37,392 nt of DNA from a virus, in the IMG/VR virus record IMGVR_UViG_3300037479_000222, positions 1 to 37,392 of that record. One strand, written 5' to 3'. Both the position numbers and the translations under genes were made by a program. Position 1 is the stretch's first letter. Every line of letters starts with the position of its first letter. Of this stretch, positions 2,371 to 37,392 are shown in pieces. The notes under the pieces are model-generated. The model made no database searches. It had not been told where the DNA came from and saw only the letters and a program-made list of their open reading frames with translations.

Positions 2371-3507
2371 TCATGCTTGCTGGCGCACAGAGGCGGTGGG
2401 AGGCATTTCATGGCCTGTCGCGAAGAAAAAGCCGTCAATTTCTCGACAATGCTTTTCAAGAATCTCGACCCCCTGTCTCATTGTCTCCAACCGGACATGG
2501 GTATACGTGGCTGTCTGATCACGGCGCTTGTGGCCGAGTATTGCCGAGACGGCTGAGTATGGGATGCCTGAAGACTCCATGACCGTACTGGCCAAGTGTC
2601 TAACGTCATAAAGAATCCAGCCGTCTTTGATTCGTTCGCCATATTCAACCTTGGCCATCTCCCCGGCCTTCTGTAGCGCTCGATAGAACCCGTTCTTTGG
2701 AATTTGTTTGAAAAATCTTGGGGCATGAACCTGGCGTGATTTCAACATCTCAAGAGCCATTTCAGACAGTGGGACAACGCGAACAGATCCGCCGCCTTTC
2801 TTGGTTTCGATTCTGACCGTCTTCCAATCCCAACTGACCTGGCTTTGTGTGAGATTCAAAATCTCCCCTTCCCTTGCGGCCGTCAAAAGCATGAGCCTGA
2901 AGAGATCAAAGATTTCATGTCTATGATCCATAGAAGCCATTTTCTCTCCCTTTTGTCTGTCGGCCCGGAGCGCCGCCAAGAGCTTCGAGACTTCTTGATT
3001 TGAGAGCAATCTTTCACGGCCCGGAGGATCGGGAAGCCACGGCGCGGTTGGGGGGCGCCATTCGCCAAGCTCCGGGAAATAATCCCCGGCTCTGTGAAGC
3101 GCGCTCGATACTCTCGACAGATATTGATTGATTGTTCCGGGTTGAAGCTTGCGGTCTGCGATGTGATCAAGAAACTTTTTCCAGTCAGCGCGAGTGAGTT
3201 TATTCAAGACCGTTTCATGTTCAACGGCTTCGAGAAATTCATTAAACACTCTAAGCATGGGTTTGCGTTGAGTAAGCGACTTGTCTTTAGTCAATTTGGC
3301 TTCGAGGTCTTTCAGCGTGATTGCCGGTTCGGGCGAGGCCATGCCGTAACGCTCTGCCCGGTTGCGTTCAAACAATGCCGCCACGGCATCCACGGCGTCT
3401 TTCTTTTTTCGCCATTCATATCGCCTGATTCTTTGCCCGGAAATAGTTATATCAAACCCCCATCGCCATGCCTGAAGGTCTTTCCGATATTGCCTTTTGA
3501 TTTTCAT
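2371..3507 (-). CDS. int: Tyrosine recombinase / phage integrase, 378 aa
   Basis: Catalytic-domain motifs are LLTAAREGEIL (Arg), YDVRHLAST, AILGHKRRDQTATYTHV (His..Tyr). The N-terminal region is arm-binding-like (MKIKRQYRKDLQAWRWGFD). Confidence 0.9.
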   Translation of the reverse strand: MKIKRQYRKDLQAWRWGFDITISGQRIRRYEWRKKKDAVDAVAALFERNRAERYGMASPEPAITLKDLEAKLTKDKSLTQRKPMLRVFNEFLEAVEHETVLNKLTRADWKKFLDHIADRKLQPGTINQYLSRVSSALHRAGDYFPELGEWRPPTAPWLPDPPGRERLLSNQEVSKLLAALRADRQKGEKMASMDHRHEIFDLFRLMLLTAAREGEILNLTQSQVSWDWKTVRIETKKGGGSVRVVPLSEMALEMLKSRQVHAPRFFKQIPKNGFYRALQKAGEMAKVEYGERIKDGWILYDVRHLASTVMESSGIPYSAVSAILGHKRRDQTATYTHVRLETMRQGVEILEKHCREIDGFFFATGHEMPPTASVRQQA

Positions 3508-3583
3508 GGAGTTTCAACGACAAAGCCGAGGTCATCCCCCGGCCTTGTCGCTTCCGTCTTTACTGGTTTGTCGCTCTTGTCGC

Positions 3584-9536: not shown

Positions 9537-10032
9537 ATTCAATGAAAAATGGTCGAAGGGAAAACAGGGCGGAACTGTGGTTTCGGATGCCCGAGCTAAA
9601 TTTACCATTCCCGATGGGCGTAGCCACAACGATGTTGACTACTACGGGGGCTATCTAGTCGCTGAATCCATCCCGAAGCAAGAGTACGTCAACCTGATCG
9701 CCCTGGCGCCGGATCTTTACAACAAACTCGAAGAGATAGAGCGGGTAATTGCCGAATGGCCAACGCTTCATGCTGATGGCGATTATCTACATGGCTGGAT
9801 TCTTAACTCAATCCGTGAACTGTTGAATCAAGTGGGCAAGGAAATAAAGCCACAGCCTGACGCTGTTGGCGAATTGGCCCAATCCTGCCAGCGGCTTAGA
9901 GAGATCATTCGCAATGAATTTAGCTCTGATGGTCAGAACTGGCAGGCAATCAAAAAGTATCAGGCCGATGTCGATCAGGCACTTGTCGCAATTCGCAACG
10001 TACGCGGAGAAAGCGAGGGGCAACATGGCTAA
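9529..10032 (+). CDS. GPW/ANA-LIA family paralog 2 (divergent), 167 aa
   Basis: Motifs are MARFNEKW...VNLIALAPDLYNKLEE. ATG at 9529 follows GGAAAGGAGG, and the start ATGGCTAG overlaps the upstream stop. Confidence 0.75.
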   Translation: MARFNEKWSKGKQGGTVVSDARAKFTIPDGRSHNDVDYYGGYLVAESIPKQEYVNLIALAPDLYNKLEEIERVIAEWPTLHADGDYLHGWILNSIRELLNQVGKEIKPQPDAVGELAQSCQRLREIIRNEFSSDGQNWQAIKKYQADVDQALVAIRNVRGESEGQHG

Positions 10033-13384: not shown

Positions 13385-14032
13385 ATGGCATTCGAGTACA
13401 ACAACGATGATGAGATCATCATTTCCAACGAACAATTTTGGGAGACGCCGCCATGCGACCGGCATCCAGCCGTCTGCATTGATATTGTTCCGGTCGGAGA
13501 AGAAGAACAGGAATACACGGACAAGCAAACTGGGATTACTACCAAGAAAGATGTCCCGAAGGTCTTTCTCGTTTTCCAGGTCTTTCCCGAAGACGGATCG
13601 AGGGACAGCGAAGGCCGGCCATTCCTGATCGACAATAAATTCACGGCTTCACTTGCGCCTGCGGCGATTCTTCGATTGAAGCTCGAAAGATGGAGAGGTC
13701 GCATGGTCAATGGCAAGGTTGAAGATCGCCCCTTCACCAATGAAGAGCTAAAGGGCTTCAATTTGGCCAAACTGAAGGGCATTCCGTGCTGGCTGTCGCT
13801 GATTCCTAACGGAAAGTTTGTCAACGTGTCGGACATCGAGCCTTATGTTGACGACTCCGGCAAGCCAATAACACCCGCTCCGGCGCCAGATTATTCGGCC
13901 TATCAGCGCCGGACCTACAAGAAGAAAGCCAAGGGCGAGAAAGCAACACAATCAAGCAACCCTACCTCATCAGGGAGATTAGACCCAAATGCAAAAGCAG
14001 ACATGGCAACAAATCAATGGGTTCCCTTTTAA
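13385..14032 (+). CDS. Hypothetical protein, 215 aa; possibly an OB-fold ssDNA-binding (DUF669-like) protein
   Basis: A GAAGGAGG SD is present. The core is beta-rich with a basic, low-complexity tail, and the gene sits between the recombinase and primase genes. The function is a guess. Confidence 0.7.
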   Translation: MAFEYNNDDEIIISNEQFWETPPCDRHPAVCIDIVPVGEEEQEYTDKQTGITTKKDVPKVFLVFQVFPEDGSRDSEGRPFLIDNKFTASLAPAAILRLKLERWRGRMVNGKVEDRPFTNEELKGFNLAKLKGIPCWLSLIPNGKFVNVSDIEPYVDDSGKPITPAPAPDYSAYQRRTYKKKAKGEKATQSSNPTSSGRLDPNAKADMATNQWVPF

Positions 14033-15977
14033 CGGGAACATCAAACTTAAAGATGCGGCGTTGATCTATGTCGAAGCGGGATTTTCAATAATCCCGCTTC
14101 ACTGGATTACTCGCAATAGATGTTCTTGCGGGAGTCAGATGTGTAGTTCTCCCGCTAAACACCCTCTCACCCAACACGGCCTGAAAGACGCAAGCAATGA
14201 TCCCACCCAGGTCAAAGCATGGTGGAAGCAATATCCGAAAGCCAATATCGGCGTCTGTACAGGGCAACCAAGTAACGGCTTGACCGTGATTGATTTCGAT
14301 TTACAGAAGGGCGCCATATCGCAGGGTTTACAAGGTCTGGGCTTGCCCGCCACGCTCGAAGTCACAACGGGCAATGGTTTTCATCTGTGGTTTCGATCAG
14401 ATCAGGAAATCAGAAATTCAGTGGGGAAGTTGGGACAGGGAATTGATGTCAGGGGATGGGGTGGCTATGTGGTCGCCCCGCCTTCTATCCACCACTCAGG
14501 TCAGATTTATACATTCGCCAATCAAAACTCCATTCTTGATTTTCCGTCTGAGATACTGGCCAAACTTCAGCCCGAGCCTGAGCCGGAAGACCCGGGTTTA
14601 GTCTTGAGCTACAAATCAAACATGGCGGATTTCTTTCCAGACGGCCAAAGAGATGTTGCTCTCACTTCAATGGCGGGCAAGCTCAGGCGACAGGGCTTTT
14701 CTCAAGAAGAGATCGAAGCGGCTTTACTGACAGCGAATCAAAAGCGATGCAATCCGCCTTTGACTGACAGACAAGTCAAGAAGATTGCTCGAAGTGTAAG
14801 CCGTTATCAGCCGGCCCAACAGATCGATACTCAGATCGAAGATGAACCGGAATTGATTTTGAGCGATAGCGGCGCTGTTGATCCTGACGATCCCCAACAG
14901 CCGCCAGACCTATCGTCGAATGCTTCAGGTAAGGATCCGCTGATCGGGGCGATCACAACAGGTCAATTAAGAACGACAGTTTTTGGTAGACCTGAAATGG
15001 TCTTACAAGGATTGTTCAGAAGCGATTGGGGATTGGTGATCGGGATTGGCTCTGTAGGCAAGTCCGCATTTCTCGTCAATGTCTGCGTTTCCCTCGCATG
15101 CGGTAGGCCGTTTTTACCTGTCGTTCCTGAAGGCCAGCCGCCACGGCGGATTCTCTATTTGGATTTTGAGGGGAGTAATTGGAGGTGGCAAGAGCAAGTT
15201 GAAATATTAGGCGAAGCCTTTACGGATGAAGAAATGGCGCTTATTGATATCAACCTACATTGGGGTATTGAGCCGGAAGTTGATAATAAACCCCTACGAT
15301 TGAACGACAAAAAATCCCTTCAAAATCTAGCGGCTTATATCAAGCAACATAAGATAGATTTGCTTATCGTTGATACAATCGCCCAGGCCGTCAATTTGAG
15401 AGACGAGAACAGCAACGGCGAGGTTCAGCAAAACGTAGTTGTTCCGATCAGGCGCCTTACCAAGCATTGCGATGTCGCCGCTCTTCTTGTTCACCACGAA
15501 GGAAGGGGAAAAAATCAGAACAAAGTTCATGACTCTCAGTACCGTGGCCGCGGAGCTACGTCCCTGATGGATGCCTCGCGTTATCAAATCGCAATGATTC
15601 CATTTGATCCGGACAAGCGAGGCCCCACTAAAATCGTCAATGCTAAAAACAAAGGGTATGGGTTTGATGAGGTCGTTATGACTCTTGATGAAGATACCCG
15701 CTGGTTTTCGCCGTCTGAAGCCCCACCACCACCACCGGCGCCGAAAGTTGCGGATATGATTGTTGACGTTCTTAATCAGTCTAGCGCTGCAGGAATGACC
15801 CCCGATGAAATCTCAGGACTGATTATGGGCGTTACCAAACGGACCATTGAAAGAAGGCTGCCCGAACTACTCAAAAGTGGCCGCATAGTGAAGGTAAAAA
15901 CAGGGGTGTATAGGTCTGGAAGCCCCCCGGTTAGCGCCTCGCCCCCTGCAGAAGATTTCGACCTCGACACACCCTGA
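13989..15977 (+). CDS. Bifunctional primase-polymerase (PrimPol) / PriCT / RecA-like P-loop helicase replication protein, 662 aa
   Basis: The N-terminal PrimPol region reads IIPLH..KHPL..GLKDAS..NIGVCTG..VIDFD..TGNGFHLWF..GIDVRGWGGYVVAPPSIH. A PriCT-like segment (ALTSMAGKLRRQGFSQEEIEAALL) follows. Walker A is GIGSVGKS and Walker B is LLIVDT, and the C terminus is wHTH-like. Confidence 0.9.
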   Translation: MQKQTWQQINGFPFNGNIKLKDAALIYVEAGFSIIPLHWITRNRCSCGSQMCSSPAKHPLTQHGLKDASNDPTQVKAWWKQYPKANIGVCTGQPSNGLTVIDFDLQKGAISQGLQGLGLPATLEVTTGNGFHLWFRSDQEIRNSVGKLGQGIDVRGWGGYVVAPPSIHHSGQIYTFANQNSILDFPSEILAKLQPEPEPEDPGLVLSYKSNMADFFPDGQRDVALTSMAGKLRRQGFSQEEIEAALLTANQKRCNPPLTDRQVKKIARSVSRYQPAQQIDTQIEDEPELILSDSGAVDPDDPQQPPDLSSNASGKDPLIGAITTGQLRTTVFGRPEMVLQGLFRSDWGLVIGIGSVGKSAFLVNVCVSLACGRPFLPVVPEGQPPRRILYLDFEGSNWRWQEQVEILGEAFTDEEMALIDINLHWGIEPEVDNKPLRLNDKKSLQNLAAYIKQHKIDLLIVDTIAQAVNLRDENSNGEVQQNVVVPIRRLTKHCDVAALLVHHEGRGKNQNKVHDSQYRGRGATSLMDASRYQIAMIPFDPDKRGPTKIVNAKNKGYGFDEVVMTLDEDTRWFSPSEAPPPPPAPKVADMIVDVLNQSSAAGMTPDEISGLIMGVTKRTIERRLPELLKSGRIVKVKTGVYRSGSPPVSASPPAEDFDLDTP

Positions 15978-15982
15978 AAAAT

Positions 15983-16038
15983 ACAAGACCGACAGACCGA
16001 CACTCCCTATAAGGGAATGTCGGTGGTGTCGGTCTTGT
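15983..16038. repeat. Long imperfect inverted repeat built from GACCGACA / TGTCGGTC iterons; candidate replication origin and/or terminator hairpin
   Basis: Stems of 12+6+5 bp surround a 3-nt loop, starting 6 nt after the primase-helicase stop. There are 4 iteron copies inside and a fifth (TGTCGGTCT) at 16095-16103. GGGGGCG occurs twice at 16047-16053 and 16064-16070. Confidence 0.6.
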
Positions 16039-16154
16039 AACTTATAGGGGGCGCTCTATTTACGGGGGCGTCCCAAAAATGGGAAAAAGTAGCCTGTCGG
16101 TCTAATAATTGGTCAAAAATACACCAAATGGTTTAAAAAGAAGGGAGCATTAGA

Positions 16155-17972: not shown

Positions 17973-18000
17973 ACAAACAACAGAGGGGAGATTGAAGAAG

Positions 18001-18210
18001 ATGGAAGAAGAGCCGCAAAAAAAGAGTCTTGGTTATTACGGTGGTCGAATCGGCAAATATGAAGTAGTGGGAATGGATGCTGATCGCCGCTGGCATCTGT
18101 TTCTTGACGGTCGAGACACCGGACGCAGTTATAAAAGATTGACTGACGCCCGGAGGGCAATCAAGAACGAAGAGACAAAAGAGAAAGCCCGGTCGGAGAA
18201 AGGGGAGTGA
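18001..18210 (+). CDS. Hypothetical protein, 69 aa
   Basis: ATG at 18001 lies after GAGGGGAG (the track ORF starts at 17836, overlapping the previous gene). Confidence 0.55.
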   Translation: MEEEPQKKSLGYYGGRIGKYEVVGMDADRRWHLFLDGRDTGRSYKRLTDARRAIKNEETKEKARSEKGE

Positions 18211-18213
18211 AGC

Positions 18214-18369
18214 ATGAATATCTGCGCAATATGCCAGCAAGAGCAATGCGGGCGTGAAGAGATGTGCGCCCTCTTTTGGAATCTGGATCAAAATAATGAT
18301 GCCTATATTGATCTGGACGAAATAGAGCCGAGCGAATATGAACTACTCGAAGAAGAGTTAGATATTTAG
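18214..18369 (+). CDS. Hypothetical Cys-rich acidic 51-aa protein
   Basis: Translation is MNICAICQQEQCGREEMCALFWNLDQNNDAYIDLDEIEPSEYELLEEELDI. An AAAGGGGAG SD is present. It is not in the track. Confidence 0.45.
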   Translation: MNICAICQQEQCGREEMCALFWNLDQNNDAYIDLDEIEPSEYELLEEELDI

Positions 18370-18387
18370 AAAGGGGAGTGAAGAGAG

Positions 18388-19071
18388 ATGGCGAAAATAA
18401 AATTCTTTGATCCCGATCAAACTTACATTTCAATATCGCGCACATGCGCTAGACGGATGGAAGAGATGGAATTATTTCCTCAAGCAACTAGATTTGAAGA
18501 CGTGAGAAGGGTGATGGTCGCTGCGCTTCGTGATACTGCCGAGATCATACCTGACACGTCGGAGACTCACTTTCTAGCGAGATTCCATATACAAAACGAC
18601 ACGATTGACCGCAAACTTGTTGCCGCCTGCGTGGTGACAAAAAGCACTGGCTTGAATCTTCCTCATGTCTTGTTAGTTCGTGGGCTTATGAGTGAAGATG
18701 CCGCCCTGCAGATAATGCACAAAGGAAGAGGATTAAAGCCGTTGAAACATGACGATACGATGCAAAAGGTTGGCGTACTAGCGGCGTGTGTTCGCAGCGA
18801 TGCGGAAACGCTTCGCCCCTTAGACGATCCCGACGATGATGAGAAATCCTGGCGCCGAGCCGTGCGTTTGGCGAATGAAAGGGCACCTCATTTGTCGGCA
18901 GAACAGAGAAGGCTTTTAGCGTCGTTGATAAATGAAAAAGAATGGGTATACGGTCGTATCAATCTTCTTCCCTTGGACGCCCCAACACGTTTTGCCTATC
19001 TCACTAAATTGAAGGCTTTGAAATGGGCAATAGAACAATGCACAAATTCTGAAAGGAATAGAATGAGATGA
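18388..19071 (+). CDS. Hypothetical protein, 227 aa
   Basis: An AAAGGGGAG SD and a long ORF of normal composition. Confidence 0.7.
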   Translation: MAKIKFFDPDQTYISISRTCARRMEEMELFPQATRFEDVRRVMVAALRDTAEIIPDTSETHFLARFHIQNDTIDRKLVAACVVTKSTGLNLPHVLLVRGLMSEDAALQIMHKGRGLKPLKHDDTMQKVGVLAACVRSDAETLRPLDDPDDDEKSWRRAVRLANERAPHLSAEQRRLLASLINEKEWVYGRINLLPLDAPTRFAYLTKLKALKWAIEQCTNSERNRMR

Positions 19072-19370
19072 AAAGCATGTGGACTTTTTCTGCAACTAAA
19101 GGTTGGTTCCGGTCGGAGAATTCGTTGGCTGAAGTAGATTCGATTGAAGAAGCCAAACGAATGGGATTTAAGAACACGCTCGATACCGCCCCATCGGCTT
19201 TTGCGCCCGGTAAGGCAATCAGACAAGCCATATTCTTTCAGCGAGTGAAAAAAGCGAGAGTTGATTATCTTGGCTACTATCACATTGGCGGGGCTGACTT
19301 TTGGTTTTACATGCCGAACACGGCGTCATTCATTGAAGCCTTTAGTCGGTATCAATCAATCGTAAGATAA
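19068..19370 (+). CDS. Hypothetical protein, 100 aa
   Basis: ATGA overlap with the upstream gene. Confidence 0.65.
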   Translation: MKSMWTFSATKGWFRSENSLAEVDSIEEAKRMGFKNTLDTAPSAFAPGKAIRQAIFFQRVKKARVDYLGYYHIGGADFWFYMPNTASFIEAFSRYQSIVR

Positions 19371-19387
19371 ACAAGGGAGATTCACAG

Positions 19388-19828
19388 ATGAAGAAAAATA
19401 AGACAATCAAAACAGCGGATGAAAAGTTGGCGTTGTCAGGAGAGATGAGCGAAACAATCAGAGAGCAAATATTGGCGCGTGACGCAGATAGACATAAACT
19501 ACATATCCTCCTGAGCGAGCTTACGAGTTTAAGTCGCAAACTGCATGAACTCCTGCCAGAGTTTTCGCGTTTAGGCCGTTCACACCGCTTCTCACTTTAC
19601 GGGGAATTGGAATTTGCCGTGGCAGGCATTTGTCATGCACTCAATCACTATCATAAAGCACTGCCATATCACTACGAAGAACCCGATGAACATGATTGCA
19701 TCACTTGTGCCTTGATTTGGTTGACAGAAGAGACGGGAGAAAACCCACTCGAAGTTTTTGGCCAGATGTTTGCGGGCGAGTTTGTAAACGATCAATTGCA
19801 GCCTCAAGAAGAGTCCGAACAAAAATAG
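19388..19828 (+). CDS. Hypothetical protein, 146 aa
   Basis: An AAGGGAG SD is present. The protein looks helical, with His/Glu-rich segments. Confidence 0.65.
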   Translation: MKKNKTIKTADEKLALSGEMSETIREQILARDADRHKLHILLSELTSLSRKLHELLPEFSRLGRSHRFSLYGELEFAVAGICHALNHYHKALPYHYEEPDEHDCITCALIWLTEETGENPLEVFGQMFAGEFVNDQLQPQEESEQK

Positions 19829-19863
19829 ATTTTGACTCTTTACATAAGCCTGTTTTTGTAAAG

Positions 19864-19895
19864 ATTGATCGAAAATCGCGCGATTTTCGATCAAT
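19864..19895. repeat. Perfect 32-bp palindrome ATTGATCGAAAATCGC|GCGATTTTCGATCAAT; candidate recombinase core site or operator
   Basis: Verified base by base. It reads as 13-nt arms around a CGCGCG centre and lies 30 nt upstream of the small tyrosine recombinase gene. No T-run follows. Confidence 0.9.
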
Positions 19896-19925
19896 AGAAT
19901 CAAGGGATGACAAAGCGCGGCCAAT

Positions 19926-20498
19926 ATGAATAATGTAAAGAGTATGAGCGAAACCCGAAAATATCTGACCGAATCTGAGATCGAAATCTTTTTGAAGGCT
20001 TCGAAGAAGACCCGGAACGGAATCCGGGATTACTGTATGGCGATGATGGCCTATCGTCATGGATTCAGGGTAAGCGAACTTATCAGCGTTCGAATAAACG
20101 AAGTCCACCTGGACATGGCCCGGCTCGATGTTCGAAGGCTTAAGAAGGGGCTAGACGGTCATCACCCAATCGAGGGAGACGAACTTCGGGCGATTCGGGC
20201 ATGGCTCAAAGAAAGAACGGTCCATAAGTTTTCAGGCTCGCCCAATCTGTTTCTGAGCGAGCGCGGACCTTTCACAAGACAGGCCGTCAATTATCTCTTC
20301 GAGGTCATAGGCCAGAAAGCCGGCTTAACGATCAAGGTCCATCCCCACATGTTGCGCCATTCCTGTGGCTACAAGCTGGCCAATGACGAAAGAACGACGC
20401 GAGATATTCAAGACTATCTAGGCCATCGAGACATCAGGCAGACAGCCAAATACACGGCCCTCAACGCCGAGCGATTCAGAAACTTTTGGAGGAAATGA
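19926..20498 (+). CDS. Small tyrosine recombinase of the FimB/FimE (DNA invertase/resolvase-like) type, 190 aa
   Basis: It aligns by eye along its whole length with FimB: YLTESEIEIFLKA..RDYCMAMMAYRHGFRVSEL..RLKKG..HP..HPHMLRHSCGYKLAN..IQDYLGHRDIRQTAKYTALNAERF. The start could instead be the Met at 19944. Confidence 0.88.
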   Translation: MNNVKSMSETRKYLTESEIEIFLKASKKTRNGIRDYCMAMMAYRHGFRVSELISVRINEVHLDMARLDVRRLKKGLDGHHPIEGDELRAIRAWLKERTVHKFSGSPNLFLSERGPFTRQAVNYLFEVIGQKAGLTIKVHPHMLRHSCGYKLANDERTTRDIQDYLGHRDIRQTAKYTALNAERFRNFWRK

Positions 20499-20502
20499 AC
20501 CG

Positions 20503-20784
20503 ATGACACCAATGGAATACGCCGATGAATACTTTCGTCTCAATTTCGAGCGGCAAGCAGATCTCGCCAGAAAAGGTCAGCAACTTCGCCCCCTTGAAGA
20601 GGAGATTGCGATTTGCAAACAGATGATTGTAAAGATTGTCCAAGCCGCCATCGAGGAAGAAAGGGAAGCGTGTGCGGGGATCGCCCATGAAGAACTGGAA
20701 ATCGAAAGAGAGTTTGCGGAATCGCGCTCGGGTGAGGAAGTTGCCGAATATATTGAGGCTAGAATCCGCGCCCGCTCTTCATGA
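20503..20784 (+). CDS. EEEREACA-motif small protein, 93 aa (paralog of 17733..17972)
   Basis: A GGAGGAAA SD is present. Motifs are IVQAAIEEEREACAGIA...IEARIRARSS. Confidence 0.65.
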   Translation: MTPMEYADEYFRLNFERQADLARKGQQLRPLEEEIAICKQMIVKIVQAAIEEEREACAGIAHEELEIEREFAESRSGEEVAEYIEARIRARSS

Positions 20785-20832
20785 TATACTCCCCGCCATT
20801 GGGTGCATAGATTCTGTTTCCAAATCACTTTT

Positions 20833-20866
20833 AAGCCCTGGCGCGAGTCGGGGCTTTTCTCTTTCC
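20833..20866 (+). terminator. Rho-independent terminator ending the long + strand block
   Basis: AAGCCCTG-gcgcgagt-CGGGGCTT hairpin followed by a T-rich TTTTCTCTTTC tract. Confidence 0.6.
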
Positions 20867-20974
20867 CACTTCTCACCACAATAGGCCAATCGCTTCACAG
20901 GCCCGCCATTGTCGAAAGACATGAAGGTTGGCCTACTCCTGACAAGGGCAAAATCAATGTAGGTCAAATATGGC

Positions 20975-21010
20975 GAAAAAATAGGCCGTGAAGCATCCAA
21001 TTTCACGGCC
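20975..21010 (-). terminator. Rho-independent terminator ending the - strand late/lysis operon
   Basis: On the - strand a GGCCGTGAA-N9-TTCACGGCC hairpin is followed by TATTTTTT, 37 nt after the stop of 21047..21244. Confidence 0.7.
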
Positions 21011-21046
21011 CGGTAGGAGAGAATGAAAGATGGGGTTGGAAGTAAA

Positions 21047-21244
21047 TCAAGAATGCGATTTCTGAGGCCCACAGGCTTTGATATGGCCATCGAGTCTTTC
21101 AGTCATGACAGCCACGTCTCGTTTCACGTCACCAATTGTTCCGGCGAGTTTCCACAAGACGCCACCGACCGCAATAAAAGCCATGAGCATAGCGATGAAC
21201 ATCGTTACGACAGCAGGGTTGATATACATGTTGTGTGAGGTCAT
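21047..21244 (-). CDS. Holin-like single-TM protein, 65 aa
   Basis: MTSHNMYINPAVVTMFIAMLMAFIAVGGVLWKLAG is followed by a charged tail. It lies immediately downstream of the transglycosylase gene. The function is positional inference. Confidence 0.5.
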   Translation of the reverse strand: MTSHNMYINPAVVTMFIAMLMAFIAVGGVLWKLAGTIGDVKRDVAVMTERLDGHIKACGPQKSHS

Positions 21245-21286
21245 GTTGCGACTCTTTGGGGGAGTCAAAGTTGATAGGGCAATGTT

Positions 21287-21796
21287 TTAATCACTAAAGG
21301 CAAACCAGAGCAATAAGCCCGCGGCCCCTATTATAAGCCATACCGGGAAGTCTCCAGGGGAGACAGTCACTTGATCAAGATTGACAACAGAACTTTCAGT
21401 AAAGCCAGCCTGATTATAGATCGCTTGGGCATAAGCCTTTGCCGCGGCTGAAACCGTCCCGCGCTGGACGTTTCCGGGACCGCCATTGTAGCCCTGAAGG
21501 GCTTTGAGGTAATCGCCATTGAACATGGCTATCAGGGCAATCATATATCTGCCCCAGGCGTCGAGCGCGAGTTCAGGATTGTAGGCATTCGTATGAGGCC
21601 CAGAGCCGTAATCTTTCCATGTCGCCGGGGTGAATTGACTAATCCCTCTCTCACCCGCGCCGCCGACGAACGGCCCGAAGATCACATCCTGTCGCCAGCC
21701 TGATTCGCGTTGCATTTGAGCAAGGGCGATGTTCGGATCGATCCCGTACTGATTGGCTTTCGCGACAACTAATTGTTTGATCTCTTCAGTCGTCAT
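21287..21796 (-). CDS. Lytic transglycosylase (SLT domain) with a C-terminal TM anchor, 169 aa
   Basis: The SLT motif is IALAQMQRESGWRQD...GERGISQFTPATWKDYG...YNGGPGN. The C-terminal anchor is FPVWLIIGAAGLLLWFAF. Confidence 0.85.
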   Translation of the reverse strand: MTTEEIKQLVVAKANQYGIDPNIALAQMQRESGWRQDVIFGPFVGGAGERGISQFTPATWKDYGSGPHTNAYNPELALDAWGRYMIALIAMFNGDYLKALQGYNGGPGNVQRGTVSAAAKAYAQAIYNQAGFTESSVVNLDQVTVSPGDFPVWLIIGAAGLLLWFAFSD

Positions 21797-21799
21797 TTA

Positions 21800-21958
21800 T
21801 CATTCCCAACCCCAGGCTTTAAAAGCACGGTCGAGCAAATCACGCAAGGCCATCAATCTTGGCCGAAGTTTTACAGCCTTTGACCCATCAGGATTTTTTA
21901 CGACTTGCGTAAGCCAACTTTCAAAAGTCCCAAAAGCTATTGATTCCCACCAAGACAT
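21800..21958 (-). CDS. Hypothetical 52-aa Trp-rich amphipathic protein
   Basis: Translation is MSWWESIAFGTFESWLTQVVKNPDGSKAVKLRPRLMALRDLLDRAFKAWGWE. AGGAG lies 7 nt before the ATG. It fills the gap between two genes and is not in the track. Confidence 0.5.
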   Translation of the reverse strand: MSWWESIAFGTFESWLTQVVKNPDGSKAVKLRPRLMALRDLLDRAFKAWGWE

Positions 21959-21973
21959 AATTGCTTCTCCTGT

Positions 21974-22552
21974 TTAGTTTTGAACAAGTTCGATGATCGA
22001 GAGATTCTGAATTACGTCGTTATCCGCTGTCCCCTCACCGCTGACTAGCATAGTTATAGGGTTCAAGTTGAGATTAGGAAGCCCGGCAATAATCCCGTTG
22101 CGAACAGTAAACACTCCACCAGAACCAAAAGGAATATTGACATTCGCTGAATCTACACCCATCGCGTTAGCGCCAAAAAAATGACTCAATAAAACTGAGG
22201 TAGATGAAAGACGGACTATTCGCGCAGCAATCGCCCAACCCACACTGACAACAAGATCCCGAAGGCCAGTATCTTCCCATATCGTTCCGCCAAAACTAGT
22301 GACGACTCTTTTAAGATTGGCATTCGTCGCATAGTCACCGCCGTACCAAACATGCAAATAATCTCCATCACTTCGCAGACTGTTTGCGGGAAGGGAAAAA
22401 CTGTGAAGCGGATCAAGGCCTGCGCCCTGATTGCCAACTACCGCCGTATTGACTTCTATGTTGCGAACTAAGCCCACAAAACTAAACTCCCCAGTTGGCC
22501 GTTTGTGAAGCCCCAAGAGGCCCGCATGTCTTCGTTCATAAGAAAGCGCCAT
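21974..22552 (-). CDS. Spike/receptor-binding candidate B, 192 aa (N-terminal MALSYERRH)
   Basis: It shares the LSYERR N terminus with the upstream gene, while the rest is beta-rich and unrelated. The start lies 1 nt after the upstream stop. Confidence 0.7.
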   Translation of the reverse strand: MALSYERRHAGLLGLHKRPTGEFSFVGLVRNIEVNTAVVGNQGAGLDPLHSFSLPANSLRSDGDYLHVWYGGDYATNANLKRVVTSFGGTIWEDTGLRDLVVSVGWAIAARIVRLSSTSVLLSHFFGANAMGVDSANVNIPFGSGGVFTVRNGIIAGLPNLNLNPITMLVSGEGTADNDVIQNLSIIELVQN

Positions 22553-22553
22553 A

Positions 22554-23264
22554 TCATGGCCTAATTGCTATAAGCCCCGTCGCCCACGGCTCAGTTGGTG
22601 TATTTGGCAACCCCGTTGCGATCTTGTTTCCTGTCGCGCCCTGTGGCGTTAGATTGCCGGTAGACGTAAAAAGCAGCGTCACAGAACCATCGAGCCTGGT
22701 TGTCAGTACCGGAGTTACGCCACCTGGAGGGGTGATGCCGGGGAAATTCCACTTCGAGCAAAAGTAAACAATCAAACTGTTATTGATCGCTGTTGTGATT
22801 CCCGGCGCCGTGGCCGTTGCTCCTAGGCCCGTTGCCGTCGAAATTTCGCCTGGATCAACGGGTGTTATAAGGTCCGCTCCGAAAGCCGACATCATCCATG
22901 CGTTAGTTGAAGCATTCGCATGAGTGATTGTGTAGTTGGCCGGTTCTCCTGCGGCGATTTTTATCCAGGCGTAAGTGTCGACTGTGAAGATCGTTGTATC
23001 AGCCCGCGTGAGCGGAAAACCCGGCAAAATGCTAAATCCGGCCGGGGGCGTTGCGACCGGAGGCGCCGCCCCGCCACCTATGCCGTCTTCAAAGATCAGT
23101 AGTAGAAAATCGTCATCGGCCACGCCGGCCGGGGCATTGATAACCGTGTCTGTGCGCCCGCCCGCGAAATTAACGAACGAATCAGACCTGAACGTGACGG
23201 CGCCGGCCTGCGCCCCGCCACCCATGCCTCTGAAATGTCTTCTTCTTCTCTCGTAAGAAAGCAT
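22554..23264 (-). CDS. Spike/receptor-binding candidate A, 236 aa (N-terminal MLSYERRRRH)
   Basis: The protein is beta-rich and G/T/A/P-rich. The start abuts the upstream stop (TAGATG). Confidence 0.7.
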   Translation of the reverse strand: MLSYERRRRHFRGMGGGAQAGAVTFRSDSFVNFAGGRTDTVINAPAGVADDDFLLLIFEDGIGGGAAPPVATPPAGFSILPGFPLTRADTTIFTVDTYAWIKIAAGEPANYTITHANASTNAWMMSAFGADLITPVDPGEISTATGLGATATAPGITTAINNSLIVYFCSKWNFPGITPPGGVTPVLTTRLDGSVTLLFTSTGNLTPQGATGNKIATGLPNTPTEPWATGLIAIRP

Positions 23265-31291: not shown

Positions 31292-31645
31292 TTATCGTCC
31301 TCTCTTGCCCAACGTGAATAACAAGAAGCCGCCGACAATCAGCATGAGTGTCGTTTGTGATAGCTGAATCCCGCTTGACGGTTGCGGTTGTGCTCCAGGC
31401 GTTGGCGCAGGCACGGGAACCGGCGCGGGCGATGGCGTTGGAAACTGTGGATACGGTGGATAGCCGGCTACTTCTACAGTGGCGACCTGTGCGGCTCTCT
31501 CAATCGCCCGGTTGATTGAGTCTACGTACCAGGGCGTTTCGTAAGACGGCGCGCTTGCTGTTGGCTGTCTCGACGACCCTTCTTCAACCGGGACGATGTA
31601 ATCAACGTAAGGCAGGCCGAAATACTCAAATACTTGTTCGTCCAT
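31292..31645 (-). CDS. Tail-anchored membrane protein with a Pro-rich linker, 117 aa
   Basis: PYPQFPTPSPAPVPVPAPTPGAQPQP is followed by the TM TTLMLIVGGFLLFTLGKRGR. The start forms a TGATG overlap with the upstream gene. Confidence 0.7.
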   Translation of the reverse strand: MDEQVFEYFGLPYVDYIVPVEEGSSRQPTASAPSYETPWYVDSINRAIERAAQVATVEVAGYPPYPQFPTPSPAPVPVPAPTPGAQPQPSSGIQLSQTTLMLIVGGFLLFTLGKRGR

Positions 31646-32247
31646 CAGAGAATCTCCCAGGGAAGCTCAAATCCCCCGTCTAGTGTTTGTTGCCGCCAGC
31701 CCATTGGTTGGTCTTTGGCGACGGCATCAAGAGCCAACCATTCGCTACTGGGCATCAAGACTTCGCAATACACATGGCTTGCGCTCTCGCCGTCCACCCA
31801 CTGAGCTACGAAGCGAGGTCGAAGGCCGAGACACATCGCCAGCGTTGCGAGCAATACCGACAGGCTTACGCAATCGCCTCTCTTTAATTCGAGCGTTCGC
31901 CTTGCGTCCTGCAATGTCTGTTGATTTATCGGATGTGGTTCGTAGGTGATGTTGGCTATCACCCAATTGAACAGGGCGGCTATCTGACTTCGGGCATCGT
32001 GGTTGTTTGCGCCGGCAGTGATTTGATAAGCCGCCCTGATATTGAACTCGTCTTGATAGCCGCTGTAATCAGGACCGATGCGCCCCAACACGGCATCCCG
32101 CATTGCATCGAGCGTCATGAAAGTGGCGCCATCACCATCAGGTAACGGTCTGTATTCAATTGAGTGAGAGAGGGAGGCGGCGGGCGCAAGGCGTCTAAGC
32201 GGGTAGTAATCGCTAGTCCCAGAAAATGCGCCCATGTTTGCCGCCAT
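31645..32247 (-). CDS. Transglutaminase-like cysteine protease-fold protein, 200 aa
   Basis: The Cys-His-Asp core pattern is KRGDCVSLSVLLATLAMCLGLRPRFV...SHVYCEV...WLALDAV. It is the first gene of the late operon. Confidence 0.7.
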   Translation of the reverse strand: MAANMGAFSGTSDYYPLRRLAPAASLSHSIEYRPLPDGDGATFMTLDAMRDAVLGRIGPDYSGYQDEFNIRAAYQITAGANNHDARSQIAALFNWVIANITYEPHPINQQTLQDARRTLELKRGDCVSLSVLLATLAMCLGLRPRFVAQWVDGESASHVYCEVLMPSSEWLALDAVAKDQPMGWRQQTLDGGFELPWEIL

Positions 32248-32360: not shown

Positions 32361-32469
32361 GCTTACGTTTGTTAAGTGAGAGTCTATCGGTTGTGATGTC
32401 TGAGTTTTACTCAAACTTCACTCCATGATCTGTTGAAAATATTTTTTTATCTCTCGGAAAGGAGTGGGA

Positions 32470-33876
32470 ATGCCGAGAAAGAAAACAGCCGAAGTTGAAA
32501 TCCTGCCACCTGAAGACAATCAAGCAAAGCAAGGGCGCCCGAAGATCGTTGAAGCCAAGCACACAATCGAGTTTAAAGCGCCCCACGCAATCGAAGAGCC
32601 AATTAACGAAGATGAAGAGATCGAGATTGATGATGATCTTGTCGCCGAAGACAGGCCGAAGAAGAAGCGCCAGAGCTATCGTGAAGAGCTTCGCAAAAAA
32701 CTCAGAGCGCAAGGCGTGTCGCCCGCGACTAGGCTGACGATCACAATCGAGCGGTACACGCACAGCGAGTCCGGCGAAAGCGGGATGTGGGCGGATCGAG
32801 AGTTTTGCGCCAAGAACTTTTGCGAAGAGCAATATGTTTTGGACGAAGGCTATATGGATTTGCTGAAGCAATGGGGGCCGGGGACGTATCGTATTACGCT
32901 CAGGTTGAACGGAACCATTGTTGACGCTTTCGATAAGCGAGTAGCCGCGCCTCCAAAAACAACTCCAATCATCCAACATGTCAATCCGAATGATCCGACT
33001 TCCCCGCAAGTGATCGTCCAAACAACCAACGGCGACGGCCAAGCGCAGCAAATCCCGATGTCAATCAAGGACATCATGAAAACTCAGCGCGAGGCTTTGA
33101 AAGAACAGTTCGAAATGGCGAAGCTCATGCGCGAGGCTTACGGATTCGCTCCTGAGCAATCGCAAGCGAATCAACAGCAAACAACCGATCCCGAACTAGC
33201 AGCATTACAACTAATCACAAAGAATCCTGATGTCATGGAGAAGATCGCCGGAGGTCTTGCGAAAACAATCTTCGGCGGCAAGGGCGGCAGTGACGACGCG
33301 CCCTGGTGGGCGGACATCTTAAAAGACTCAATAACGACGGGCCAGCTGGCGCCAACGGTTCAAGGAGTCGTTAAGGCGCTATTTCCCAACGGCCTATTTG
33401 GCGGTCTATTCCCCGGAGGCAATAATAATGGGCAAGCTCCAACAACGCAGGCGCAAACGCAGGCGGCGACAACTGCGCCAGCAACTACGCCGGAACAACA
33501 TTCACCTAATCCCAATGCCTTACTCAGTGATGGAGTGCATGCAGTTCATACAGAACGAACTGGCGAGGGAGTATCAGGAGTCACGCCCGAGCAACACGCG
33601 CTCTCAAGACTGATCGAGAACTGTCAACGCAATGTTCCCGTTCAAGTGGCGTTTCAACAGTTGGTCAACTATGCCGATGCGATCAATGAACAAGCCCCGG
33701 AATATTCAATCGACGGCTACATTGATTTGCTTGGCTCAATGGAGACAGAGCAAGTGATTGAATTCGTGAAGTCCCTTCCAGGCGGCGAGCAAATAGCGTC
33801 TTTGCCTCACGCGGCTTCATGGACAAGTGAGCTTCAGCGATTGATCAAAGAGAGTCAGGAGGGCGAAGAGGAATGA
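32470..33876 (+). CDS. Hypothetical protein, 468 aa (charged N terminus, Q/T/A/P/G-rich linker, helical C terminus)
   Basis: ATG at 32470 lies 6 nt after AGGAG. The ORF is long and has no P-loop. Confidence 0.75.
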   Translation: MPRKKTAEVEILPPEDNQAKQGRPKIVEAKHTIEFKAPHAIEEPINEDEEIEIDDDLVAEDRPKKKRQSYREELRKKLRAQGVSPATRLTITIERYTHSESGESGMWADREFCAKNFCEEQYVLDEGYMDLLKQWGPGTYRITLRLNGTIVDAFDKRVAAPPKTTPIIQHVNPNDPTSPQVIVQTTNGDGQAQQIPMSIKDIMKTQREALKEQFEMAKLMREAYGFAPEQSQANQQQTTDPELAALQLITKNPDVMEKIAGGLAKTIFGGKGGSDDAPWWADILKDSITTGQLAPTVQGVVKALFPNGLFGGLFPGGNNNGQAPTTQAQTQAATTAPATTPEQHSPNPNALLSDGVHAVHTERTGEGVSGVTPEQHALSRLIENCQRNVPVQVAFQQLVNYADAINEQAPEYSIDGYIDLLGSMETEQVIEFVKSLPGGEQIASLPHAASWTSELQRLIKESQEGEEE

Positions 33877-37189: not shown

Positions 37190-37392
37190 ATGATGCCCAA
37201 TCTCGATTGCGTCTATGATTGCCGCTCGTGCGGGCCGTACGAGTTCGCGCGCTATCTTCAAGCCGGGCCGTTCGAGTCGTATATCGGCTACCCTGAAACG
37301 GCTCGGATTCTTGAAGAGTTGTCCGGCGTGAAGATACCAATCTCTCGCGCCCAGACTACTGTAGAGCCGGGGGACACTCTGTTGATTGCTCG
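37190..37392 (+). CDS. 5' part of the junction-spanning DUF1874 (AcrIII-1 family)-like gene; continues at 1..218
   Basis: It starts ATGATGCCC and reads MMPNLDCVYDCRSCGPYEFARYLQAGPFESYIGYPETARILEELSGVKIPISRAQTTVEPGDTLLIAR... There is no stop before the window end, and the frame continues into position 3 of the window. Confidence 0.75.
   Translation, partial: MMPNLDCVYDCRSCGPYEFARYLQAGPFESYIGYPETARILEELSGVKIPISRAQTTVEPGDTLLIA
37266..37392. repeat. Terminal direct repeat, copy 2 (identical to 1-127)
   Basis: 127/127 identity with the window start. Confidence 0.97.

Follow-up and report, generated by a model that had tools for sequence, protein, structure and literature searches.

The DNA considered here is IMG/VR record IMGVR_UViG_3300037479_000222, a viral sequence of 37,392 nt (the window, in all that follows), and the system in question is a small tyrosine recombinase gene together with the DNA directly upstream of it. 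The reading frame begins 30 or 48 nt downstream of a perfect 32-bp palindrome, depending on which ATG is used (19926 or 19944), and a first-pass annotation had taken this palindrome for a lox- or dif-like core site. A comparison of ~160 related loci leads elsewhere: the conserved DNA companion of the recombinase clade is a 109-bp tripartite element (19835-19943) carrying three copies of one short motif, L, M and R, and the palindrome, which overlaps the right arm of the candidate core by 3 bp, fills the first half of the spacer between this core and R. The features of the locus are the following:

19835-19866: candidate crossover core L-M, 13-6-13, with arms ACTCTTTACATAA (19835-47) and TTTTGTAAAGATT (19854-66) around the asymmetric centre GCCTGT (19848-53)
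19835-44: motif copy L, ACTCTTTACA, inverted
19857-66: motif copy M, TGTAAAGATT, direct
19864-19895: perfect 32-bp palindrome, 13-6-13, ATTGATCGAAAAT-CGCGCG-ATTTTCGATCAAT (as a whole, ATTGATCGAAAATCGCGCGATTTTCGATCAAT)
19907-19934, plus strand: promoter-like ATGACA-16-AATAAT, scoring 10/12, downstream of the palindrome and overlapping R
19931-19943, plus strand: candidate accessory half-site R, 13 bp, TAATGTAAAGAGT, oriented as the core's right arm
19934-43: motif copy R, TGTAAAGAGT, direct, abutting the ATG at 19944
19944-20498 (184 aa) or 19926-20498 (190 aa), plus strand: catalytic-domain-only tyrosine recombinase, putative resolvase
20833-20856, plus strand: canonical intrinsic terminator (GC stem and T run) after the small open reading frame (ORF) that follows the recombinase, closing the rightward operon

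The recombinase and its gene

The 190-aa form of the protein is a Phage_integrase catalytic domain (PF00589, E 9.5e-39, residues 12-182) without any N-terminal domain, and of XerA, XerC and XerD it matches the C-terminal domains alone (109-287 in XerD, for example). Its earlier description as a 190-aa recombinase of the FimB/FimE type can be kept in part. The protein can be aligned over its whole length with the NCBIfam FimB/FimE-type 'tyrosine-type DNA invertase' models (residues 5-189 with positions 4-189 of the 200-position NF007370 profile), and its active site is complete, with R48, K73, H141, R144, H167 and Y176 invariant in 27 homologues. On the other hand, it falls below the curated subfamily cutoffs (183.4 bits against 221 for NF007370, and 176 against 222 for NF007371), and the true start is probably the ATG at 19944, for a protein of 184 aa, because the 95%-identical relative in L001 has no upstream in-frame ATG and most homologues begin with MSE or MxK.

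The recombinase is the best-conserved gene of its element family (95% amino acid identity in L001), and it lies in a conserved block with sharp edges (19834-20508), in which nucleotide identity is 80-87% compared with ~70% in the flanks. Upstream genes vary between close relatives, and the conserved cassette starts at position 19835, with the first base of L. In all syntenic relatives the gene lies where the rightward operon ends, close ahead of the SLT gene that converges on it. Compared with FimB, FimE and the fimbrial invertases, the enzyme is alike in size, in consisting of the catalytic domain only, in retaining all catalytic residues and in aligning over its full length at 46-49% identity; it differs not only in scoring below the family cutoffs but also in belonging to a separate sequence cluster (average-linkage clustering at 50% distance puts it in cluster 2, with 68 sequences, and the Enterobacterales loci in cluster 3).

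A conserved tripartite site and its genomic settings

L, M and R are copies of one 10-bp motif, TGTAAAGAGT, and R is the best conserved of the three. Measured from start to start, M follows L by 22 bp and R follows M by 77-78 bp, whatever lies between; the 67-bp spacer from core to R is thus fixed in length and free in sequence. The triplet is found upstream of 46 loci (38 distinct sequences), whose recombinases are 45-95% identical to that of the window and which come from at least six phyla or classes (Acidobacteriota, Verrucomicrobiota, Alphaproteobacteria, Desulfovibrionaceae, Chloroflexia and Clostridia). The L-M core stands at a fixed place upstream of ~50 homologues, and the 38 distinct cores share the consensus ACTCtttACAaAAg....c.TtTTGTaAAGAGT, which is to say two inverted 13-bp arms around a variable 6-bp centre. 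The association is specific to the clade: a strict core occurs at 37 of 67 loci in the cluster of the window's recombinase, at 0 of 46 in the fimbrial-invertase cluster, where the L-M-R motif is absent, and at 0 of 10 in a third cluster.

Two other explanations of the motif itself can be set aside. In the minimum free energy (MFE) fold, L pairs with R or M; the copies do not covary (L071, for instance, has ACTCGATACA against TGTAAAGAGT), so RNA pairing was rejected and the three are better seen as independent instances of a protein-binding motif. Nor is R merely a ribosome-binding site, because in three loci one or two other small ORFs come between R and the recombinase:

L031, 2570-3904: inserted small ORFs
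L154, 9388-10489: inserted small ORFs
L157, ~2700-3558: inserted small ORFs

In these loci L-M-R thus heads a small operon with variable cargo.

The settings in which the module recurs are informative. The flanks common to otherwise unrelated loci encode Tn3-family transposases (DDE_Tnp_Tn3 with DUF4158), and such a transposase adjoins the module in at least nine loci (L068, L070, L071, L081, L082, L092, L097, L105 and L159). Recombinase and L-M-R lie beside the transposase in several phyla, for example at:

L071, 6742-10540: divergent genes, with L-M-R between them
L105, 3714-10214: colinear genes, transposase upstream
L159, 1912-5528: colinear genes, transposase upstream (as also in L097)

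L159, the annotated Sphingobium plasmid NZ_CP060128, carries an annotated 'Tn3 family transposase', then L-M-R (4855, 4877 and 4955), then the recombinase. In a 16.6-kb Pukyongiella plasmid (L160) recombinase and L-M-R are found among Rep, ParA and the toxin-antitoxin genes HicAB; in a 17.9-kb Methylospira plasmid the recombinase occurs in this plasmid-maintenance setting too, without the L-M-R motif. Tn3 elements and plasmids are classic settings for cointegrate or multimer resolvases. Two published accounts list as Tn3-family resolvases the serine recombinase TnpR, TnpI and TnpS/TnpT and no others (PMC2847244, PMC7157771), and in the literature we found no description of a FimB-like, catalytic-domain-only Tn3 resolvase or of the motif reported here. 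The recombinase with L-M-R beside Tn3 transposases appears to be an undescribed Tn3-family resolution module. In the window it stands alone in a circular replicon: the best tblastn match to a Tn3-family transposase has an E value of only 0.27.

Among known systems the closest parallel is TnpI and its site, the IRS, of Tn4430, which measures 116 bp, lies upstream of tnpI and has a 32-bp inverted core cleaved with a 6-bp stagger; its accessory motifs, in direct orientation, repeat the core motif and confer selectivity for resolution, and the site contains promoters (PMC2847244, PMC7157771). The module of the window likewise pairs a tyrosine recombinase with a site immediately 5' of its gene (109 bp compared with 116), with a 32-bp inverted core, a 6-bp stagger (predicted here, known there), directly oriented motif copies on the gene-proximal side and promoters (putative in the window) within the site, and relatives of its enzyme adjoin Tn3-family transposases. 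It is unlike TnpI/IRS in that the enzyme is a bare catalytic domain of FimB/FimE-like sequence (184 aa as against 284-306 aa), in that one accessory half-site is present where Tn4430 has two, at 67 bp from the core and not adjacent to it, and in that the genome it serves is circular and resembles that of a virus or plasmid, where TnpI/IRS belongs to a transposon.

Bases 1-127 of the window recur exactly at 37266-37392, a terminal repeat of 127 nt, so that the assembly closes into a circle of 37,265 bp; the window is thus no integrated prophage. From the anatomy of the site and by analogy with Tn4430, we infer the following course of events. The two inverted 13-bp arms of the core (19835-47 and 19854-66) would each be occupied by a recombinase subunit, with strand exchange taking place over the asymmetric GCCTGT, the 6-bp centre that separates them. 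Half-site R (19931-43), in direct orientation and 77 bp distant, would take up one more subunit; as in TnpI/IRS, this accessory site on one side only would limit recombination to direct repeats on one molecule, with the consequence that dimers of the circular genome would become monomers. Having no Tn3 transposase to serve, the module in the window would monomerise the circular replicon itself, a role that fits a recombinase which is a core gene in every relative and which comes in addition to a separate integrase. A module of the TnpI/IRS kind whose enzyme is a minimal, FimB-like recombinase, carried by a circular element resembling a virus or plasmid, is in our view the best reading of the locus, and we give a little better than an even chance to its full form, in which the recombinase is the resolvase of the 37,265-bp circle acting on 19835-19943 and the palindrome is a dispensable insulating hairpin, not the crossover site.

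Two considerations weigh against the resolvase part of this proposal. The assignment of L-M-R to the recombinase as its binding site is drawn from their co-occurrence, and TnpI has a core-binding domain that the protein of the window lacks; the likeness to TnpI is one of layout and context. Of the three roles that the first-pass annotation had offered for the recombinase and the palindrome, multimer resolution of a circular element is the one that the comparative evidence favours, with the difference that the site would be L-M-R. The worry raised there about a symmetric, non-directional spacer also disappears, because the candidate core is asymmetric at its centre, GCCTGT, and its accessory site lies on one side only.

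Other site-specific systems offer partial parallels. In Cre/loxP of phage P1, too, a tyrosine recombinase carried by a phage or plasmid has one 13-N-13 site close to its gene, and the system monomerises a circular replicon; Cre has two domains, however, needs no accessory site and acts on a loxP spacer of 8 bp, and no specific sequence relationship is detectable. XerCD at dif and cer resembles the module in combining a core with a 6-bp centre and one-sided accessory DNA to obtain resolution selectivity, and the site in the window lies near the cumulative GC-skew maximum, as dif would. The cer site carries within it a structured RNA-coding segment (Rcd RNA). The window differs from these Xer systems in that its enzyme is self-encoded and single, accessory binding presumably being done by the recombinase itself; its motif is unrelated to dif, and we found no evidence for an Rcd-like transcript.

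The second of the earlier options, an inversion switch, fared poorly: there is no partner site at any locus, and neither the window nor its relatives contain an inverted pair of sites around an invertible segment, or a flipped variant, of the kind expected for a fimbrial invertase. A miniature version could still be imagined, in which the recombinase flips the segment between L (19835-44) and R (19934-43), palindrome included, since these are 10-bp inverted copies of one motif, 99 bp apart in the window and at a constant 99-100 bp throughout, and the enzyme resembles FimB and FimE. This we consider hardly credible. The arrangement expected after such an inversion was found in 0 of ~50 independent loci, R has no partner half-site that would complete a core while L already pairs with M as a 13-6-13 unit, and a palindromic hairpin reads the same after inversion.

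A second L-M core was found neither in the window nor in any relative locus. One core-like match inside the integrase gene (3110-3142, ACTCTCGACA-N13-TGTTCCGGGT) agrees at 13 of 14 fixed positions around a gap of 13 nt; off-target matches of this kind to the degenerate core number ~2 in 1.95 Mb, and it was judged to be a chance occurrence. In L147/L148 (~9846-9925) L-M appears partly duplicated, as ACTCTTAACA-12-TGTCAGGAGT followed by CTTTACTT-11-TTGTAAAGATT, before a decayed palindrome. Four copies of TGTAGTGAGT at 22-bp spacing beside the RepB gene of L161 (8917-8992) are plasmid iterons with a chance resemblance to the recombinase motif.

The third earlier option was autoregulation through the palindrome. 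Autoregulation is plausible, and it would act through R: because R overlaps both the promoter-like site and the start codon of the gene, recombinase bound there may control its own synthesis. The promoter-like site at 19907-19934 would give a leaderless or very short-leader mRNA. Its equivalents in sister lineages, read from their sequences, are TTGACG or TTGACA-17/18-AAGAAT with the -10 inside R (TTGACG-17-AAGAAT in many of them). In the non-viral members M forms the -35 of a TTGTCA-17/18-TAtAAT promoter; the viral lineage has lost this ancestral -10, and its promoter-like site lies past the hairpin. A sigma-70 promoter based on TAGAAT (19895-19900) was rejected for want of a usable -35.

These overlaps also lend some substance to a different view, namely that L, M and R are autoregulatory operators only, that the recombinase acts elsewhere, for instance on host switches in trans, and that the palindrome is the operator of another regulator such as an immunity repressor. 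M does share sequence with the -35 in non-viral loci, as R does with the promoter, the ribosome-binding site or the start; moreover, phage immunity regions typically have operators that change rapidly in step with the specificity of their repressors. We nevertheless think it unlikely. A setting among Tn3 or plasmid-maintenance genes calls for a resolvase that acts on a site in cis, an inverted 13-6-13 pair with a variable centre has the anatomy of a core site, and the arms of the palindrome have no further copies in the genome, unlike the operators of typical multi-operator repressors.

The palindrome between core and R

That the palindrome at 19864-19895 could not be a chance event had been claimed at the outset, and this is borne out: all 16 nested pairs are complementary, whereas 8.7e-6 perfect palindromes of 16 pairs are expected in 37 kb and the longest in 30 shuffles had 6-10 pairs. 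Its centre lies 29 bp from that of the core, and both units are 13-6-13. As RNA it would form a 14-bp stem of -17.5 kcal/mol (z -4.45). An Rfam search of 19600-20200 gave no score near any gathering threshold. Second copies of the arm in the window and 10 related loci are limited to chance-level matches, and an exact-arm search of the viral collection returned one close relative and nothing else. The partial half-site AACGATCAAT noted earlier at 19784-19793 is likewise at chance level (22 occurrences of the 13-mer at up to 3 mismatches, with 20 expected) and falls in a non-conserved upstream ORF.

Among the relatives a hairpin-like element recurs at the same place, and its sequence is not conserved, even where the recombinases are 77-89% identical, as seen by alignment of the close relatives and inspection of the more distant ones:

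L001: same arms, other centre (AGCGTA, against CGCGCG in the window)
L021, L023, L040, L147, L156: imperfect or decayed palindrome
L026: perfect, different palindrome, ATTGGGCGAAATCAC-C-GTGATTTCGCCCAAT
L151: perfect, different palindrome, AAAGGTCGAAATC-GGAGCG-GATTTCGACCTTT
L158: near-perfect, different palindrome with one mismatch, arms TTGGCCGATCAGCGC and GCGCTAATCGGCCAA
L003, L029, L034, L033: perfect, different palindrome, a GC-rich hairpin flanked by an A run and a T run, as in canonical intrinsic terminators
L145, L149, L157: no hairpin

Folding of 17 lineages gave a strong hairpin (z below -3.6) in nine, a weak one in five and none in three. In an ungapped alignment of 11 lineages, 8 of 13 pairs have changed on both sides while 80% of cells remain paired, a level reached by 0 of 500 shuffles and lost when the register is slid. 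Because of these two-sided changes, and of pairing that beat every shuffle, complementarity or, equivalently, dyad symmetry is under selection where the element exists; its sequence is free and the element itself dispensable. A hairpin is not a general feature of the M-to-R spacer (mean z -0.8, with only 7 of 38 below -2), and that generalisation was rejected.

These comparisons bear directly on the claim that the palindrome is the recombinase's own lox- or dif-like crossover site, used for resolution or for inversion with an unseen partner. It has the 13-6-13 form and adjoins the gene, and L001 has kept identical arms around a differing 6-bp centre, as would be expected of a spacer. Yet among recombinases 65-89% identical the arms differ or are lost while L-M-R persists (L145, L147, L151, L156 and L158), the palindrome is missing from L145, L149, L157 and all non-viral members, Tn3 and plasmid alike, no second copy exists anywhere, a symmetric centre gives no directionality, and a separate conserved core lies 29 bp away. 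The clade's conserved core is 19835-19866 together with R, and we regard a crossover role for the palindrome as very unlikely. Readings of it as a dif site, a protelomerase target, an origin or an attP were rejected as well, there being no motif match, no encoded protelomerase, no conservation of sequence and no integrase nearby.

We instead favour a role at the RNA level. The palindrome would act as a hairpin that blocks or pauses read-through from the upstream early operon ahead of the recombinase's own promoter, shielding the resolvase promoter and the accessory site as a terminator-like insulator with quick turnover between lineages. This is our leading reading because four lineages (L003, L029, L033 and L034) have canonical terminators in the same spacer; their hairpins share the M-to-R spacer and stand ~12 nt further from M than the palindrome of the window.

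Several observations tell against such a hairpin. The palindrome has no T run (the next letters are AGAATCAAGG, with the tail AGAAUCAAGG), a terminator scan of 18000-22000 did not call it, and the genome does use T-run terminators, as at 20833-20856; as a terminator it would be weak or atypical at best. Mismatches in the decayed palindromes comprise 5 G.U and 9 A.C, with no plus-strand G.U bias, so that they lend no specific support to an RNA-level role on the plus strand. Conservation is higher in the inner stem, CGAAA(A)T, than in the outer one, and the inner arm recurs where the outer arms differ, which hints at sequence-specific recognition. The covariation, too, is what either a hairpin or a symmetric site for a protein would produce.

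Since the U run and the G.U bias are missing and the inner stem is conserved, a DNA-level role for the palindrome stays a serious rival, although one to which we assign a distinctly lower probability. Here the palindrome would belong to the resolution complex, either as the site of a dimeric accessory protein from host or element or as a bent or cruciform segment folding R onto the core. An M-to-R distance fixed at 77-78 bp speaks for an architecture at the level of DNA, a 67-bp loop requires bending, the two 13-6-13 units are centred 29 bp apart, the inner arm is retained in lineages with differing outer arms, and the symmetry is preserved by double changes. Against it stand close relatives that keep L-M-R and the recombinase while the palindrome is absent or decayed (L145, L149, L157, L021 and L147), as well as the Tn3 and plasmid members, all of which are without it; furthermore, no candidate binding protein is conserved within the cassette, the block of conservation ending at 19834 and 20508. 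A GC-rich centre also disfavours cruciform extrusion.

A circular element family and the place of its recombinase

Apart from the recombinase module, the window offers few recognisable genes. It encodes a DNA methyltransferase, a DnaJ-domain protein and a transglutaminase-like protein, and in addition:

2371-3507, minus strand: second, full-length integrase
13989-15977: PrimPol-helicase
21287-21796, minus strand: SLT lysozyme

The separate integrase that the first-pass annotation had reported is therefore present in full. Directly after the PrimPol-helicase gene lies a 23-nt inverted repeat (15972-16049; 83% complementary, 32-nt loop). Known phages show no DNA similarity to the window, and the syntenic relatives are all metagenomic contigs of ~30-36 kb from soil. 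About 11 kb (21974-32247 on the minus strand and 32464-33876 on the plus strand) is conserved among these relatives, and its genes, the ~10-kb minus-strand block included, have no PHROG, Pfam or PDB-sequence match. The best conserved of the proteins encoded there (25843-26673, 276 aa) has 155 homologues, none of them on a contig longer than 44 kb; the AF2 model is beta-rich (pLDDT 64), and the top Foldseek matches, not significant at E 0.026 or above, are almost all jelly-roll virus capsid proteins. The element may be a tailless jelly-roll virus of Acidobacteriota.

Cumulative GC skew is lowest near the divergent intergenic region at ~5.6 kb and highest at ~20-22 kb, where transcription converges and the res-like site is located. 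This placement resembles that of dif and is inseparable from the effects of gene orientation. GATC (Dam) sites number 187 compared with 145 expected; GATC is not avoided in the genome, and no significance was attached to the count.

A wider view, which we put forward tentatively and think doubtful as a whole, is that the window exposes an undescribed and widespread class of minimal FimB-like, catalytic-domain-only resolvases, each with its own complete res site of ~110 bp (a 13-6-13 core and, at a distance, an accessory half-site), which would constitute a fourth kind of Tn3-family resolution module. Small plasmids could have taken up the class as well, and so could a family of ~35-kb circular viruses of soil Acidobacteriota, possibly tailless and of the jelly-roll type, in which it would be a core gene perhaps because circular monomers must be packaged. 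The viral spacer, in this wider proposal, could have gained a structure-selected palindrome that works within the complex: its DNA might be bent or extruded as a cruciform, or it might give rise to a checkpoint RNA of the Rcd kind, produced only while the dimer is synapsed.

If the resolvase reading is correct, a 184-aa enzyme and a ~110-bp site would rank among the smallest self-sufficient resolution systems with built-in directionality, and could serve as a compact tool for genome engineering. A new type of resolvase would be added to the Tn3 family, and the FimB-like 'invertases' annotated in soil metagenomes would often be resolvases. Finally, the module would provide a functional handle on a family of Acidobacteriota circular elements that is otherwise almost unannotated.

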